DNA from: Candidatus Hydrothermarchaeales archaeon
Lineage (GTDB): Archaea > Hydrothermarchaeota > Hydrothermarchaeia > Hydrothermarchaeales > JAZGAD01
Assembly: GCA_036444275.1 (NCBI GenBank)
Contig: JAZGAD010000033.1
Span: 1 to 64,000, forward strand
Direction: 5' to 3'
DNA: 64,000 bases
Made by a program: the position numbers and the translations under genes. The notes under the pieces are model-generated. The model did no database searches. It saw nothing but the letters and a program-made list of their open reading frames with translations, and was not told the origin of the DNA. The first letter of the stretch is position 1. Each line of letters begins with the position of its first letter. Shown piece by piece: positions 4,968-59,565 of this stretch.

Positions 4968-7405
4968 TCCACATCCTCAGGGTATACACCAGTATAATAG
5001 ACGAATACTTCTTTCATCCCGGCCTTAGCGATCTTAGCCTCTTCAATTACACCGCCAAATTCCTCGATTTTTTGGGAGATCTCTATTGGCTTAGGGGAGT
5101 CCATGATAAACTTTAACACCCTGCCCTCCCTGATAACCTTCCTAACGCCTTCCAGACTAGAAATTTTAGAAACCAGATCTTCACTGACCTCCTCCAAGAT
5201 GATATGCACGACCTTGCCTCTCCCGGGCATCTTTCTCGCGAGTTCAGAAGGAGAGCCCTTCGCTAGGATCTGGGCATTGCCCACGATTATTACCTCGTCG
5301 CAGTGCTCTGCCTCGTCCATAAAATGAGTTGTAAAAACGACTGTCTTTTTCTCAGAAGACACGACTTTGCTCAACGCTGTCAAAATCTGATCTCTACTTG
5401 TCGGGTCTAGTCCGGTTGTGGGCTCGTCTAAAACTAAGATTGGCGGTTCTCTGATGAGTTCCATTCCTAGGGATAGGCGCTTCAACTGGCCTCCAGAAAG
5501 GTTTTTTGCAATAACATCTTTTCTTCCAGAAATGCCAAGTTGTTTGAGGATCTTCTCGGATTTTGCTTCAGCATCTTTCACATTCCATTTTAAGGCGCTG
5601 TTCATCATGTTCTGCCAAACTGTTTGATCGAGGTAGAGTTCTGGGTGCTGGGGCACGAAGCCGATGAGTTGGTTGATCTTCATTCGGTCTTTCTTGGTGT
5701 CTATACCTAGTATTTTGATTTCTCCTTTGTCCGGTGGCGTTCTACCGGCAACCCCTTCGATAAGTGTAGATTTTCCACCTCCTGAAGAGCCGACGATTCC
5801 GCAGAGCGTTCCCTGGTCTATTTCAAAACCGATATTTTCCAAAATCACAGACTTTTTGTAGCTCTTCGATAATCCAGCTACGGAAATAGCCTTTGCTGTA
5901 GTCGTAATAGGCTCTTCCTTTGTTTCCATTACTCTTGTTTCACGGCCTTTCACCCTTCTTCCCTTTGGCCTAGATGGAATCGATCTGAGTTTTAAGAAAA
6001 GACCCATTGCAACTATGCCTAAAAACACTATAACCCCAAGGGACGAGTACACCTTCATCCTAGCTTCGCTTAGCAATTTATCAGCATTCAAAATATGTTC
6101 TTTAGCAACTGCTAGATTCCCAGAGTTAAATGCGCTGTCCACTGCTAGGATTTCATTCCTAGCAAGAATTAATCTTTGTTCAGCAGTCCCTCCAATCATC
6201 AAGCTTTTCCCGAAGTTTACAGTGGACTCCGTACTTGCCACATTATCGCTTAGCTTCTTTTTTATCGCAGAGTAAAGCAGGGGCTTCGCCTCGTCGAGCA
6301 TCGTCATTCCAGAAGCTCCCTTGGTATAGGCGTCGTTTCCATAGTTCATCGCAGACAGATAATCCCCTTCCCCGGATTTTTGCAGTGCCAGAGTGTAGCT
6401 ATTGTTGGCTTCTTTCAAAATGAGTGTCGCACTCAAAATCTTTTCCTCGGCAGCAGAGACATCTGCACCGATCTTCTTTCCTGTACTAATGAGTCCGGTT
6501 AGATCAATCACTAATTTTTCAGTAGAACTGATTCGATCTCTAACTGTAGTCTGGATGTCTTCTGGAGAAGTGATTGCCTTTTCCTCAGCTTTAGGTGGAG
6601 GCGTAGTAGGCGGTGGAGTGGTGGGTGGTGGTGTAGTAGTTGGGGGAACAGTTGTAGGAACTACGTCTGGACACCCATCAGTATCCAGATAGTCGTTGAA
6701 AGTTTCAGGCTCGTTGGGGCATGCATCGTTATCATCAACGATACCATCGCCATCGGAATCTTGAGGAGGCTTGACATCTGGACACCCATCAGCGTCTTGA
6801 TATCCATTGAAGTTTTCCGATTGTGTAGGGCACTGGTCAACATTATCCATTATGCCGTCGCCATCGGTGTCTTTCTGGCTAGCCGCGCATCCATTCGCAT
6901 CCACCACGGCTCCAGATGGTGTATTGGAGCAGGTATCTCGCGAGTCGGGGACGCCATCATCATCCGAATCAGGCTCTGTTACAGTTATAGTGCTATCGAA
7001 ATAATTTGTAAATACAACGTATCCTGGCTCCATCACCGGATGTCCACTCACAACAACACGAATCTTATAGGTGCCTGGAGATGCCAAATTTGTAAACAGT
7101 ACGTCAAATTTAATAGTCTTGGATTGACTAGGAGTTAAGGGTCCTACACCGATCCTACCGGGATGAATTTCCCTCCACTTTGTTATTCCCTCATAATTAT
7201 AACTTGTACCTTCAAATAAGCCTAGCAACGCATCAAAATCTAACGTCTCAGTACCGGTATTTGTAATAGTCACGACTACGGTGCCAAATCCACCCGGGGG
7301 AGCAGAGGTAGTAGAAATTGACGCATCAACATCATAATCAGCTGCTAAAACGATAGATGGAGAGACCAGAATTGTCAATAAAATAACAAATAGAATTTTG
7401 TGCAT
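4964..7405 (-). CDS. Fusion: signal peptide, Ig-like domain, TSP3 repeats, P/T linker, helical stalk, TM helix, ABC ATPase
   Basis: DxDxDG/DxCP repeats, TTPPP repeats, TM LGVIVFLGIVAMGLFL, Walker A GSSGGGKS, LSGGQ, LVLDEP, TTH. Confidence 0.85.
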   Translation of the reverse strand: MHKILFVILLTILVSPSIVLAADYDVDASISTTSAPPGGFGTVVVTITNTGTETLDFDALLGLFEGTSYNYEGITKWREIHPGRIGVGPLTPSQSKTIKFDVLFTNLASPGTYKIRVVVSGHPVMEPGYVVFTNYFDSTITVTEPDSDDDGVPDSRDTCSNTPSGAVVDANGCAASQKDTDGDGIMDNVDQCPTQSENFNGYQDADGCPDVKPPQDSDGDGIVDDNDACPNEPETFNDYLDTDGCPDVVPTTVPPTTTPPPTTPPPTTPPPKAEEKAITSPEDIQTTVRDRISSTEKLVIDLTGLISTGKKIGADVSAAEEKILSATLILKEANNSYTLALQKSGEGDYLSAMNYGNDAYTKGASGMTMLDEAKPLLYSAIKKKLSDNVASTESTVNFGKSLMIGGTAEQRLILARNEILAVDSAFNSGNLAVAKEHILNADKLLSEARMKVYSSLGVIVFLGIVAMGLFLKLRSIPSRPKGRRVKGRETRVMETKEEPITTTAKAISVAGLSKSYKKSVILENIGFEIDQGTLCGIVGSSGGGKSTLIEGVAGRTPPDKGEIKILGIDTKKDRMKINQLIGFVPQHPELYLDQTVWQNMMNSALKWNVKDAEAKSEKILKQLGISGRKDVIAKNLSGGQLKRLSLGMELIREPPILVLDEPTTGLDPTSRDQILTALSKVVSSEKKTVVFTTHFMDEAEHCDEVIIVGNAQILAKGSPSELARKMPGRGKVVHIILEEVSEDLVSKISSLEGVRKVIREGRVLKFIMDSPKPIEISQKIEEFGGVIEEAKIAKAGMKEVFVYYTGVYPEDVE

Positions 7406-55930: not shown

Positions 55931-57343
55931 CTAGTTAGACACGGCGTATTTTCTCTCTTTGAGGACGAACTCATCGTGCAGTCCTTTAGCTGCTCCTTTG
56001 GCGTCTCGAAGATCGACGACGAAGGAGATGTTCGCTTCAGATGAACCCTGAGATATCATGATAATATTCGAACCTGCTTTTGCAACTGCTGTGAATACCC
56101 TGGCAGCCACACCCTTGGCGCCACGCATGCCTGCCCCTATCACCGCTATCACTGCCACATCTTTCTCGCAGCGAACATCCTTTATAATATTGCGGCCGGC
56201 GAATTCCTGAGATATCGTCTTGGTTGCTTTATCCATATCGCTCTTTTCCACAACCACTGAGATGTTCACTTCAGATGAACCCTGAGATATCATGATAATA
56301 TTCACCCTTTCTTTAGCTAGTGCCGTAAAGACCCTGGCGGCTACACCAGGCACGCCTATCATGCCTATTCCCTCAATAGTGAGCAGGGCGACATTCTTCA
56401 TTACACTGACCGCTTTCACTATGTCGGCGATCTCCTTCTGTCGCTTAACTATCAACGTACCCGGATTCTCTGGTTTGAAGGTATTCCTAACCCTCACAGG
56501 TATCCCAGCTTCCATAGCAGGCTCTATAGTCTTGGGATGCAGGACTCTCCCCCCGAAATACGCCAGCTCAGCTGCCTCAGCATATGACATAACATCTATC
56601 ACTCTCGCTTCCTTTACCAACTTGGGGTCAGTACTCATTATTCCATCCACGTCAGTCCAGATCCAGATTTCATCTACATCAAGGGCAGCCCCTAGTAGGG
56701 CCGCTGAATAATCAGAGCCCCCTCTACCCAGGGTGGTTGTCCTACCCTTCTTGTCTCCTGCTATAAATCCAGTTACCACTGGGATGCATGCCTCCATCTT
56801 CGGCTTCAACACTTTTTTCGCCTTCTTCGTAGTCAAATCCCAAATGACTTTCGCATTCCCGAAATTTGAGTCAGTGATAATGCCGGCCTCAAAGCCTGTA
56901 AGCCACATGGATTTTATGCCTGTACTATTAAGTGCCCCTGCTATGATGGGTGCCGACAAGCGTTCCCCGAAAGACAGAATGTAGTCCAGAGACAGAGGAG
57001 TGAGCTCTCCAACGTAGGATACACCTACTAGAACCTTCTCCAGCTCAGCGCATAGGCGGCCTATCTCGATTATAGCGGCCTCTTGGTCCGTACTTATGGT
57101 TTCCTTTATCATCGCCAGGTGCTCTTCCCTGAGATCCCCAGTGAACCTCTTAATTTCTTCCTCCGAGGCACCAGCGGCAACCTTGTTGCTCATCTTTATC
57201 AGCATATCAGTAACGCTAGCCGTAGCAGAGGCTACCACTAGGGTTTCTCCAACCCTATGCTCCCTGACAAGCTCCGCTACCCTTCGTATCTTCCTACCGC
57301 TAGCTATAGAGGTACCTCCGAATTTCATCACCAGCTTATCCAT
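55931..57343 (-). CDS. lysC: Aspartate kinase with two ACT domains
   Basis: KFGGTS, SFGERLS, LGRGGSD, WTDVDG, ISQGSSE twice. Confidence 0.95.
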   Translation of the reverse strand: MDKLVMKFGGTSIASGRKIRRVAELVREHRVGETLVVASATASVTDMLIKMSNKVAAGASEEEIKRFTGDLREEHLAMIKETISTDQEAAIIEIGRLCAELEKVLVGVSYVGELTPLSLDYILSFGERLSAPIIAGALNSTGIKSMWLTGFEAGIITDSNFGNAKVIWDLTTKKAKKVLKPKMEACIPVVTGFIAGDKKGRTTTLGRGGSDYSAALLGAALDVDEIWIWTDVDGIMSTDPKLVKEARVIDVMSYAEAAELAYFGGRVLHPKTIEPAMEAGIPVRVRNTFKPENPGTLIVKRQKEIADIVKAVSVMKNVALLTIEGIGMIGVPGVAARVFTALAKERVNIIMISQGSSEVNISVVVEKSDMDKATKTISQEFAGRNIIKDVRCEKDVAVIAVIGAGMRGAKGVAARVFTAVAKAGSNIIMISQGSSEANISFVVDLRDAKGAAKGLHDEFVLKERKYAVSN

Positions 57344-57814
57344 ATACCTCCCTCTCAAATACTGGTTCCTTATTTAACCTTTCCCTTGAGAGTGGCTTTG
57401 CACCCAAATACTAGATTTCGTGTTAATAAAAGTGCAAAATAAGCTTTGCTACTAATCTCTCTTTTTCAGCGTACTTTAAGAGTAAATAGCGACTTTGATA
57501 GTAGAATATTTATAATATGAACGCTAATATACTACGTAAGAATGAAGCTTTCTCAGAATTATAGGGGGTGGGAAAAGAAGGTTTGCCCATATGTTCATGT
57601 AACCATAAGCCTAATATATGCAGTATAGAGTGTTGGAACTACAAAATGAGCTTTAAATCAAAAACTTTATATGTATCCACTCTGCTAAATCTAGGTCTAA
57701 GAATGATTAAAGATAGACGGAGGTCTAGTGAGGTTATGCTGGGTATAGCGGGACTATTCTATATTTTTATGACCTCATCTCACTTCCAAACACCCCTTAG
57801 GAGGTTATGTTTCG

Positions 57815-58753
57815 ATGGTACCCATTAGAGTGGCTGTTTTAGGGCCGGCAGGAACATACACAGAAAAAGTAGCTCAAGAGAAATGGAAAAACCCTGCGCT
57901 ACATTATTGTGAAAACATACCTAAAGTATTCAAATACATGGCTGATGGGGAGGCAGAGTATGGAATCGTTCCCATTGAAGACTCAGCAGAAGGAGATGTC
58001 AACATCACCCTCGATTTACTCAGGGATTACGATTTTTATATAGTAGGAGAATCATTTACTGAAGTAACCCATACTTTGCTCGGAAAAAAAGACGAAAAAA
58101 CCCTTAAAAAAATTGGGTCTCATCCACAAGCATTAGCACATTGTCGGAAGTATTTGGAGATATCTTTTCCAGATATAGAGCAGGAACTTGAGCCGAGTAC
58201 AGCCTTTGCAGCAAAAAAAGCTTCAATGGATGTTACTTATGGAGCGATTGCTGATGAAAGAAATGCTGGAATTTATGGTTTGACGGTGTTAGCTAGAGAA
58301 ATTCACGACTGGGGAAGTAATTTAACTAGATTCATTACTATTGCACCAAAACCTATAACACCAACTGGCCGAGCCAAAACATCAATTATAGTTTACCCTC
58401 GTGATGACAAGCCTGGGCAGCTCTTCAGTGTTTTAAAAGAATTTTCAGAAAGAGAAATCAATCTAACTAAAATTGTATCACGTCCTTCAAGAGGACGGAT
58501 AGAGGAGAATGTTTTTTATATCGATTTTGAAGGTAACCAAACAGATTCGGATATAAAAAGTGTGTTAGAGAATATTGAGAACCTAGATACGATTAGTGCA
58601 ATTAGGATATTTGGGTCATATCCATATAGTCCTCCAGATTCTAAGCCTAAAGAAGTCGTGGAAACTGTAAAGGAACCAGAATCTGCAACTCTTTTTGCCC
58701 GACCGTTCGAGTTTTGGGACAATCCAGAGGACAAAATTTATGAGTCGTTATAG
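57815..58753 (+). CDS. pheA: Prephenate dehydratase-ACT with about 40-aa antitoxin-like C-terminal tail
   Basis: LGPAGTYTE, PIEDS.EG, SHPQALAHC, N.TRF, NLTKI.SRP, F.IDFEG, GSYP; tail ...PFEFWDNPEDKIYESL. Confidence 0.85.
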   Translation: MVPIRVAVLGPAGTYTEKVAQEKWKNPALHYCENIPKVFKYMADGEAEYGIVPIEDSAEGDVNITLDLLRDYDFYIVGESFTEVTHTLLGKKDEKTLKKIGSHPQALAHCRKYLEISFPDIEQELEPSTAFAAKKASMDVTYGAIADERNAGIYGLTVLAREIHDWGSNLTRFITIAPKPITPTGRAKTSIIVYPRDDKPGQLFSVLKEFSEREINLTKIVSRPSRGRIEENVFYIDFEGNQTDSDIKSVLENIENLDTISAIRIFGSYPYSPPDSKPKEVVETVKEPESATLFARPFEFWDNPEDKIYESL

Positions 58754-59348
58754 GCAGGGAGATGTTGTTTTAATAGCTTTCCCTTTTACAGACCTTACCG
58801 ATAAAAAACCACGTCCTGTAGTTATAATATCTTCAGATTGGTATAATGATAGAAGGAAGGACATCATTGTTTCAGCAGTAACTTCACAAATCCCCACCAA
58901 TATAAGAAGAGACGAATTCTTAATTAATACGAAACGTGACCTCCACGCTAGTAGATTACCAAAACCTTTTGTAGTTAAATTAGGCAAAATAATGACTTTG
59001 GAAAAGCGTGATGTCATAAAGTCATTTGGTAGGCTTCCAGAGGACACAACTAGGAAAATAATCAAAAAATATTTCGATGTCTTAGGGCACCCCGAATATG
59101 CGTATGTTGAAAAAAAAGATGTTGAAGAATATCTGAGTGAACAAGAAAGCAAATTAAGGAGGATTTTTGGATTTGAGAAAGAAGAAAAAAAGAAACCTGA
59201 TTATTACTTCAAATCCCCAGAGTTTGATGAAACAAAAGTCATCCAAGAGCTATCTAAATTGAAAACAGATATGGATTGGGTTAAAAGACTGCTTTGGCTT
59301 ATAATCGGTTCCCTTATATGGTTAGTAAAAGCGAACCTTGGAAGCTGA
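58740..59348 (+). CDS. MazF/PemK-family toxin with coiled-coil plus TM C-terminal extension
   Basis: YRQGDVVLIAFPFTDL...KPRPVVIIS...TS, GRL; tail ELSKLKTDMDWVKRLLWLIIGSLIWLV; 14-nt overlap with pheA. Confidence 0.85.
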   Translation: MSRYRQGDVVLIAFPFTDLTDKKPRPVVIISSDWYNDRRKDIIVSAVTSQIPTNIRRDEFLINTKRDLHASRLPKPFVVKLGKIMTLEKRDVIKSFGRLPEDTTRKIIKKYFDVLGHPEYAYVEKKDVEEYLSEQESKLRRIFGFEKEEKKKPDYYFKSPEFDETKVIQELSKLKTDMDWVKRLLWLIIGSLIWLVKANLGS

Positions 59349-59565
59349 TTTGAGATCAATAAAGTGCGAAATTGGGTGCAACTCCCATCTCCATCATCTC
59401 GTGAATCAAGACCACTATGTTATGAGCTATCACCTTACATAGTAACTCGTTTTTCTGAGCAATAGGATTCTTTGATTTTAGGTGCAACCTTCTGAATAAA
59501 AGTGCAAAGCCCTTAAGAGTGGATAATACCTTTAAATTAAATGCAGCGATTTAACAAATATTACC

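Follow-up and report, generated by a model that had tools for sequence, protein, structure and literature searches.

Can a metabolic enzyme take the place of the antitoxin in a MazEF-type toxin-antitoxin (TA) module? The question is raised by two overlapping genes in a stretch of 64,000 nucleotides (nt) from a Candidatus Hydrothermarchaeales archaeon (assembly GCA_036444275.1, contig JAZGAD010000033.1, positions 1 to 64,000), hereafter the window: a gene for a prephenate dehydratase (PDT) with an ACT domain and an unusual C-terminal tail, which we call PDT*, and a gene for a MazF/PemK toxin. An earlier note on this DNA had proposed that the enzyme doubles as the antitoxin of the overlapping MazF. 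Judging from the sequences compared here, a metabolic enzyme does seem to stand where the antitoxin is expected, and the PDT*-mazF pair is a real variant of the MazEF module that has not been described before. We put the probability at about 70% that it is a horizontally acquired module of the MazEF type whose antitoxin has PDT*-ACT in place of a DNA-binding domain and presents MazE-type tails.

In the accepted picture, a type II antitoxin consists of a DNA-binding module and a tail that binds the toxin; in the present case a biosynthetic enzyme with an allosteric domain carries that tail. Archaeal MazF toxins are poorly studied, and the loci described below supply partners for them.

Anatomy of the gene pair

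The PDT* frame encodes 312 residues and is preceded by GGAGG 10 nt upstream of its ATG (feature coordinates are collected in Table 1). It matches the Pfam PDT (PF00800, E 1.6e-49) and ACT (PF01842, E 7.6e-8) families, and scores 237.8 bits against the NCBIfam model NF008865 'prephenate dehydratase', above the cut-off of 219. Canonical PDT relatives in the alignment stop at GSYP or just past it; PDT* runs on beyond ...FGSYP (residue 270) for another 42 residues as YSPPDSKPKEVVETVKEPESATLFARPFEFWDNPEDKIYESL, in which a linker rich in proline, glutamate and lysine leads to FARPFEFWDNPEDKIYESL. The Pfam and NCBIfam matches and the translation thus confirm a complete PDT+ACT protein that continues past GSYP, as the earlier note had described. 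The N-terminal 270 residues comprise the PDT and ACT domains, and no match to a DNA-binding family was found for them in Pfam or NCBIfam.

The TRF triad (T171, R172 and F173) is conserved in PDT*, and the ACT regulatory motifs GALV and ESRP are altered, reading GQLF and VSRP. An excerpt of PMC13217925 gives TRF as critical for PDT catalysis, and GALV and ESRP as regulatory motifs. Phenylalanine sensing by PDT* cannot be assumed, because the 'ESRP' motif reads VSRP. The earlier suggestion of a neutralising peptide grafted onto a phenylalanine-sensing enzyme is supported in its first half, where the tail is of MazE type (see below), and cannot be carried over in its second.

The downstream frame matches PemK_toxin (PF02452) with an E of 2.6e-15 from an ATG within the last codons of PDT*, and its profile matches the solved MazF6, Staphylococcus aureus MazF and EndoA. 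Arg25 and Thr48, which are key catalytic residues of MazF according to an excerpt of PMC7354611, fall where the alignment has the conserved RP and (V/I)T motifs. Equivalents of both residues are present in the MazF proteins of the window and of loci L005, L008 and L093; the closest relative of the window protein, P0122 (121 residues, 69% identical), has Ser at the Thr position.

The end of PDT* and the start of mazF overlap by 14 nt, as previously noted, and GAGGA lies within the tail codons (58727-58731), 8 nt ahead of the mazF ATG. The overlap suggests translational coupling and, since the mazF ribosome-binding site also falls within the tail codons, PDT* and MazF are probably made together. 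Between the aspartate kinase gene (55931-57358, minus strand) and mazF we found no antitoxin-like open reading frame (ORF) other than PDT*, in agreement with the statement in the earlier note that no separate antitoxin gene lies upstream.

The same tail on small MazE-type antitoxins

We surveyed 38 genomes of the window's phylum, the window's own genome (G000) among them. The MazF query matched 10 of the 38 (G000 included) at 13 places, and we read the upstream genes at the 12 places other than the window's: five carry the tail motif, one carries a looser variant and six are other antitoxin-like genes. Among the motif carriers, the gene at L005 in genome G032 is a second PDT*, ending ...FSFWNNEEDRAYDSLY; L008 and L014 have AbrB-type proteins that match Pfam MazE_antitoxin (PF04014) and end ...LWENPEDEVWD; and L006 and L009 have 61-62-residue proteins that end in the motif. 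The looser version belongs to a DUF2281 protein (L015). The remaining upstream genes encode AF2212-like proteins with a different acidic tail (...EDAEELFE-L/F; L007 and L010), or members of a family that ends ...SEEPE-x-YS-x-KDLKVRY, with ...KDLKVRYK/R as its tail, and has no Pfam match (L002, L011, L012 and L013).

A DNA pattern for W-[DE]-N-x-E-D-x-x-[YW]-[DE], scanned over the same 38 genomes, gave five matches, against none for the reversed pattern used as control. Each of the five supplies the last codons of a gene lying immediately upstream of a PemK gene recognised by Pfam, the one in G015 being a case not seen before, and the carriers are two PF04014 MazE proteins, one DUF7557-like protein, one 61-residue protein and the window PDT*. 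The scan bears out what the earlier note had offered from recall, namely that acidic tails with W or Y end small antitoxins beside FPFTD-type MazF toxins. Taken with the reading of the upstream genes, it indicates that the tail motif is a portable, putatively MazF-neutralising element carried on at least four unrelated N-terminal domains, PDT-ACT being one of them.

Both tail-bearing PDT genes whose neighbourhood was read, in the window and in G032, have mazF directly downstream. The pairing of a pheA-like gene, tail and mazF is thus found a second time within the 38 genomes, and neither of the two neighbourhoods presented the opposite case considered in the earlier note, a tail on a PheA protein with no mazF neighbour.

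A distinct clade of tail-bearing PDTs

A word-indexed homologue search returned 647 proteins at E <= 0.001, and the results that follow concern the best 120 of these 647. The motif F-x-F-W-[DEN]-[NS]-x-[ED]-D-x-x-Y-[DE] ends eight of the 120, the window protein (P0001) and seven homologues at 44-69% identity (P0002, P0003, P0004, P0005, P0007, P0010 and P0012); it also ends the G032 protein, and F300, W301, D306 and Y309 are invariant across all nine. In four others (P0006, P0008, P0009 and P0013) the C terminus is formed by another, conserved domain, 60-90 residues long, P0029 (426 residues) joins PDT, ACT and PemK in one chain, and P0011 has a 35-residue tail without the motif. P0002 and P0122, whose contigs are equal in length, probably form a PDT*-MazF pair likewise. 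The recurrence of the fusion in other sequences disposes of the concern that it might be unique to this assembly or a read error; to judge by these relatives, it is not an assembly accident.

The tree that we built had 72 rows: hits 1 to 70 of the list, the protein from G032 and the canonical PDT of the window's genome, with P0071-P0120 left out. A clade of 15 rows (14 listed proteins and the G032 protein) has a support of 100 in the Shimodaira-Hasegawa-like approximate likelihood ratio test and holds all nine tail-bearing PDTs; the other 57 rows, the genome's own canonical PDT included, fall outside it. Compared with 107 other PDTs, the 15 clade members differ at N56 of the ENS motif, where all 15 have D (N in 98 of the 107), at Q109 of SHPQALxQC, where 14 of the 15 have H (Q in all 107), and at the Glu of the ACT 'ESRP' motif, where 13 of the 15 have another residue (E in 104 of the 107). 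We take the first two positions to be N160 and Q215 in the P-protein from Escherichia coli, which affect prephenate binding. The changes N56D and Q109H, in motifs otherwise near-invariant in PDTs, hint at a changed substrate or ligand. With TRF kept but N56, Q109 and the ESRP Glu changed, catalysis by PDT* is plausible, though perhaps with a different specificity for substrate or effector.

When 1.84 billion representatives were searched with a profile, 18,624 proteins resembled PDT at E <= 0.001. In the best 150 of these 18,624 we recognised five tail-bearing proteins (P0004, P0012, P0131, P0132 and P0139), the last three of which are additions, along with P0013, P0134 and P0135 of the other-domain type and one fused form, P0140. 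The tail-bearing PDT family is rare. Relatives of the clade were not found on viral contigs, and PADLOC returned no match for PDT* or for the window MazF. A metagenome scan with the tail-bearing alignment gave 17 loci. None of them had a tail-bearing PDT that was complete and followed by readable DNA, and a mazF was not found in any; these loci neither raise nor lower the count of PDT*-mazF pairings.

The other C-terminal domain (P0006, P0008, P0009, P0013, P0134 and P0135; 60-90 residues) follows the pattern ...I-D-A-x-N/D-L-E/D-I-G-x-x-Y-P-x-x-Y...R-P-x-K/R-G-x-L. It gave no Pfam match in P0006, P0008, P0009 or at locus L062, and AlphaFold2 from a two-row alignment reached a predicted local distance difference test (pLDDT) value of 57. 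At locus L020 (3811-4038) this domain is followed by a 77-residue ORF that is not MazF.

Predicted complex of the tail with the MazF dimer

We modelled two MazF(1-118) chains together with PDT* residues 268-312, using alignments of our own, alongside three controls. The model scored 0.78, 0.78 and 0.75, and the best of the three controls 0.02; in calibration, 58 of 80 solved complexes attained that mark, as did 2 of 110 mismatched pairs, a comparison that is only roughly applicable here. The runs share at least 75% of their contacts, with a partner pLDDT of 60-62. In the modelled interface, tail residues 291-306, 308-310 and 312 lie against residues 11, 14-17, 23-26, 46, 48-51, 74-75, 80, 83 and 85 of the first MazF copy and residues 41, 85-88 and 91 of the second, and W301, D306 and Y309 contact MazF residues 25-26 and 46-50. 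A model of the tail with the MazF dimer, as the earlier note had suggested making, thus passes its controls as a prediction and supports binding of the tail over the catalytic Arg25/Thr48. MazE-MazF complexes have solved structures, and for this reason the pass is to be read as likeness and not as proof. By sequence comparison, none of the solved chains covers the tail of the local MazE.

Genomic context of the module

The window's genome has a canonical PDT elsewhere, on contig C3, with 275 residues ending GSYPKG and an adjoining 89-residue ORF that reads, from its sequence, as chorismate mutase; the PDT* gene lies outside any aromatic amino-acid operon in this genome. With the canonical pheA beside chorismate mutase on another contig, the view that PDT* is the pheA of the genome has to be given up. 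Only G000 and G032 carry the tail-bearing copy (2 of 38 genomes), and both also carry a canonical PDT.

Orthologues of the two genes that flank the module, the aspartate kinase gene and a rhomboid-like gene, are adjacent and divergent in seven of nine relatives' loci, so the roughly 2.2 kb between them constitutes an insertion. The guanine-plus-cytosine (GC) fraction is 0.34-0.40 within this island versus 0.47-0.50 in its flanks, and the G032 pair also lies in a low-GC stretch (0.32-0.38 versus 0.49-0.54). PDT* is, on these comparisons, an apparently imported paralogue, and the module appears to be horizontally acquired. The island is bracketed by a perfect 14-nt direct repeat, which may be an insertion scar; alignment of the island flanks to the relatives' intergenic DNA gave nothing clear. 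A 15-nt imperfect repeat neighbours the 14-nt one.

Past mazF, a short repeated element of 87 nt (59395-59481) has an 85% identical copy at L061 1501-1587 (contig C54 of the same genome), between ordinary genes. A candidate transposase remnant at 59356-59487 on the minus strand was dropped, as it has no Pfam match and its 87-nt relative lies between ordinary genes. The genome also has a second mazF (L002, contig C29, 1298-1731), which is broken by TGA and TAG and is preceded by an intact 63-residue antitoxin-like gene of the ...SEEPE-x-Y-x-x-x-D-x-KVRY family.

Table 1 Features of the PDT*-mazF locus in the window
Feature	Position	Strand	Basis or remark
PDT*-ACT-tail gene, proposed antitoxin	57815..58753	+	Pfam and NCBIfam matches; membership of the 15-row clade
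Prephenate dehydratase domain, residues 6-179; TRF kept; N56D and Q109H clade-specific	57830..58351	+	
ACT domain, residues 198-255; 'ESRP' motif reads VSRP	58406..58579	+	
P/E/K-rich linker after GSYP, residues 271-290	58625..58684	+	Length and sequence vary among relatives (alignment)
MazE-like tail (predicted toxin-binding), residues 291-312, contains F-E-F-W-D-N-P-E-D-K-I-Y-E-S-L	58685..58750	+	Conservation and model
MazF/PemK toxin gene, 202 residues; PemK domain residues 5-107; Arg25 and Thr48 present	58740..59348	+	
14-nt overlap of the end of the PDT* gene and the mazF start	58740..58753	+	Suggests translational coupling
MazF C-terminal extension, 81 residues: charged stretch, then hydrophobic end LLWLIIGSLIWLV	59103..59345	+	
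Low-GC island, about 2.2 kb, whole module, between the aspartate kinase and rhomboid-like genes	57359..59565	.	
Left copy of the perfect 14-nt direct repeat bracketing the island	57425..57438	+	Repeat family D5, spacing 2070 nt
Right copy of the perfect 14-nt direct repeat	59495..59508	+	Repeat family D5

The same clade in a second phylum

We also surveyed 66 genomes of a second phylum, that of G038, and six of them contain a clade PDT together with a MazF-like part. The two are separate genes in G038 and G039, and single PDT-ACT-PemK-like frames of 437-447 residues in G102 (L081), G103 (L083) and G105 (L082); in G104 the copy is broken at contig ends. The clade PDT is the sole PF00800 match in all six genomes, for which completeness is not given. 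The fused forms P0029 and P0140 come from metagenomes.

Locus L016 reads, in order, aroE and tyrA (both read from sequence), the clade PDT, the MazF-like gene and an HNH gene. After the HNH gene comes a 91-nt, 79%-identical copy of the tyrA 3' end (5311-5401; original at 2812-2902) and then, at 5409-5650, what is left of a canonical pheA, about 23 residues from its N terminus and 48 from its C terminus (tblastn E 7e-16). The arrangement suggests that the resident pheA was displaced at this locus. At L062, a clade PDT with the other C-terminal domain occupies 63-1067, and 128 nt on come the final 86 codons of a canonical PDT (1195-1452); the clade PDT gene there has a frameshift near its start. 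In our reading of these remnants, a clade PDT could be a working enzyme and displace the resident gene, and its toxin partner could be tamed. The idea in the earlier note of an addiction device that would lock in pheA gains some indirect backing from this phylum.

Proposed mechanism

We propose that a paralogous PDT*-ACT protein replaces the usual small DNA-binding antitoxin, with a flexible linker of about 20 residues after GSYP leading to an acidic, aromatic MazE-type tail, F-x-F-W-D-N-x-E-D-x-x-Y-D/E-x-L, which also closes genuine MazE proteins and other small antitoxins of this subfamily of MazF. The tail would lie in the groove of the presumably toxic MazF dimer, over the catalytic Arg25/Thr48, and so block RNA cleavage. 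PDT-ACT proteins are oligomers; hence one PDT* oligomer would present several tails, and could in this way stand in for the MazE dimer. Both proteins would be produced together through the overlap and the mazF ribosome-binding site within the tail codons. Ligand gating at the pockets of PDT or ACT has its appeal as an idea but lacks support, and in view of the altered ESRP motif it calls for caution.

Several observations weigh against this mechanism. PDT* is a large folded protein that may not be labile like classical antitoxins, and it is devoid of a DNA-binding domain; the window MazF, with its unexplained 81-residue extension, might be altered or inactive; and the pass of the complex model may partly reflect likeness to the solved MazE-MazF complexes. 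The pairing is known from the window and G032, the neighbourhoods of P0003, P0004, P0005, P0007, P0010, P0012, P0131, P0132 and P0139 having lain outside the coverage, and a search with the 41-residue tail alone among proteins of 22-72 residues found none sharing three 5-residue words, a result that is uninformative. Furthermore, the MazF-like parts of the second phylum have no equivalent of Thr48, one of them no Arg either, and the PDT tails there have no W motif; because these catalytic residues and the W tail are missing, the link between PDT* and MazF can evidently persist without the hallmarks of a TA system.

A bolder version of our proposal is tentative, and we hold it possible rather than probable: PDT*-MazF may be a mobile cassette of the double-addiction kind, on a 2-kb island, its antitoxin being a working phenylalanine-pathway enzyme able to supplant the resident pheA, with an aromatic metabolite gating the tail. 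That a resident pheA can be supplanted is suggested by the decayed pheA remnants beside the clade PDT at L016 and L062, and by the six genomes in which the clade PDT is the sole PDT. If true, a cell that lost the cassette would forfeit phenylalanine synthesis and control of the toxin alike, and through N56D, Q109H and the ESRP-to-VSRP change the availability of the tail may come to depend on an aromatic metabolite, making MazF an amino-acid-gated RNase.

Alternative explanations

The second phylum lends itself to another account, that of a domesticated partnership in which PDT* has the MazF-like protein as its regulatory or RNA-binding subunit and the tail is the docking peptide of a stable enzyme complex. 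Such a partnership would fit the six of 66 genomes in which a clade PDT and a MazF-like part occur together (in one frame in three of the six), the clade PDT is in all six the only PF00800 match and the MazF-like parts have no Thr48 equivalent, as well as the fused metagenomic forms. The MazF proteins of the window, G032 and P0122 nevertheless keep the Arg and have Thr (Ser in P0122) at the Thr position, the tail is the same as that on Pfam MazE antitoxins, and the sporadic low-GC island beside a redundant canonical pheA resembles selfish TA modules. We consider this account unlikely.

The 81-residue extension of the window MazF bears on a further alternative, that of a decaying relic: a former TA pair whose MazF was disabled by read-through into 81 extra codons and which is now neutral cargo. 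The extension is unique to the window's genome, being absent from P0122 and from the G032 MazF, with no Pfam match and no relative in the 38 genomes of the phylum; it might be explained as an anchor in the membrane, as a gene fusion or indeed as read-through, and the same genome has the other mazF with two stops. The PemK domain and its catalytic residues are nonetheless intact, as are the antitoxin frame and the overlap, and an open frame of 81 codons at 35% GC is, on a rough estimate, unlikely to arise by chance. A relic is accordingly rather improbable in our judgement.

A chance neighbourhood or an assembly artefact, with an ordinary pheA and a meaningless extension abutting a solitary mazF, can be dismissed as extremely improbable, since no point in its support was found and the tail is conserved among relatives at 40-70% identity, G032 has the pairing too, as P0002/P0122 probably do, the motif is confined in the 38 genomes to genes upstream of mazF, and the clade is separate from the canonical PDTs in the tree.

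Comparison with known systems

If PDT*-mazF is indeed a MazEF-type module with an exchanged carrier, the neutralising peptide would be a transferable unit, fit for joining to proteins of unrelated kinds, a natural route would exist for direct metabolic control of a toxin, and a selfish module could become indispensable through replacing a host biosynthetic gene. In a full-text literature search judged by its result listings, with supplementary files outside its scope, no paper turned up that connects prephenate dehydratase or ACT domains with MazF antitoxins; an apparent match to 'PheA' was dismissed, as the word was 'pheatmap'.

With the MazE-MazF and PemI-PemK systems of E. coli, Bacillus subtilis and S. 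aureus, the pair shares the PemK-fold toxin with its Arg/Thr catalytic pair, an antitoxin gene that lies directly upstream and overlaps, and an acidic, aromatic C-terminal antitoxin tail, modelled here over the active-site groove. It differs in that the N-terminal part of the antitoxin is a 270-residue PDT+ACT protein, whereas in those systems it is a DNA-binding dimer of the AbrB or ribbon-helix-helix type of about 45 residues, and in that the window toxin has its 81-residue extension. Because PDT+ACT stands in place of the DNA-binding dimer, autoregulation through operator binding is not expected.

In Myxococcus xanthus, MazF-mx is neutralised by the transcription factor MrpC, which is encoded elsewhere. 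There too the inhibitor of MazF is a protein with another cellular job; here, in contrast, the proposed inhibitor is a co-transcribed paralogue of a metabolic enzyme with a grafted MazE tail. PheA and the P-protein resemble PDT* in their full PDT and ACT domains, in the TRF triad and in the score above the NCBIfam equivalog cut-off, and they differ from it at the clade-specific N56D, Q109H and ESRP Glu positions, in having no C-terminal extension and in that PDT* is not in an aromatic operon. CapRel(SJ46) and EzeT are single-chain toxin-antitoxin fusions, and the PDT-ACT-PemK frames of the second phylum similarly join both parts in one polypeptide; the window genes are, however, separate, and the fused PDT-ACT-PemK forms lack the catalytic Thr of MazF. 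What is classical here is thus the toxin, the operon logic and the neutralising peptide, and what is not classical is the carrier domain and the evolutionary behaviour of the module.

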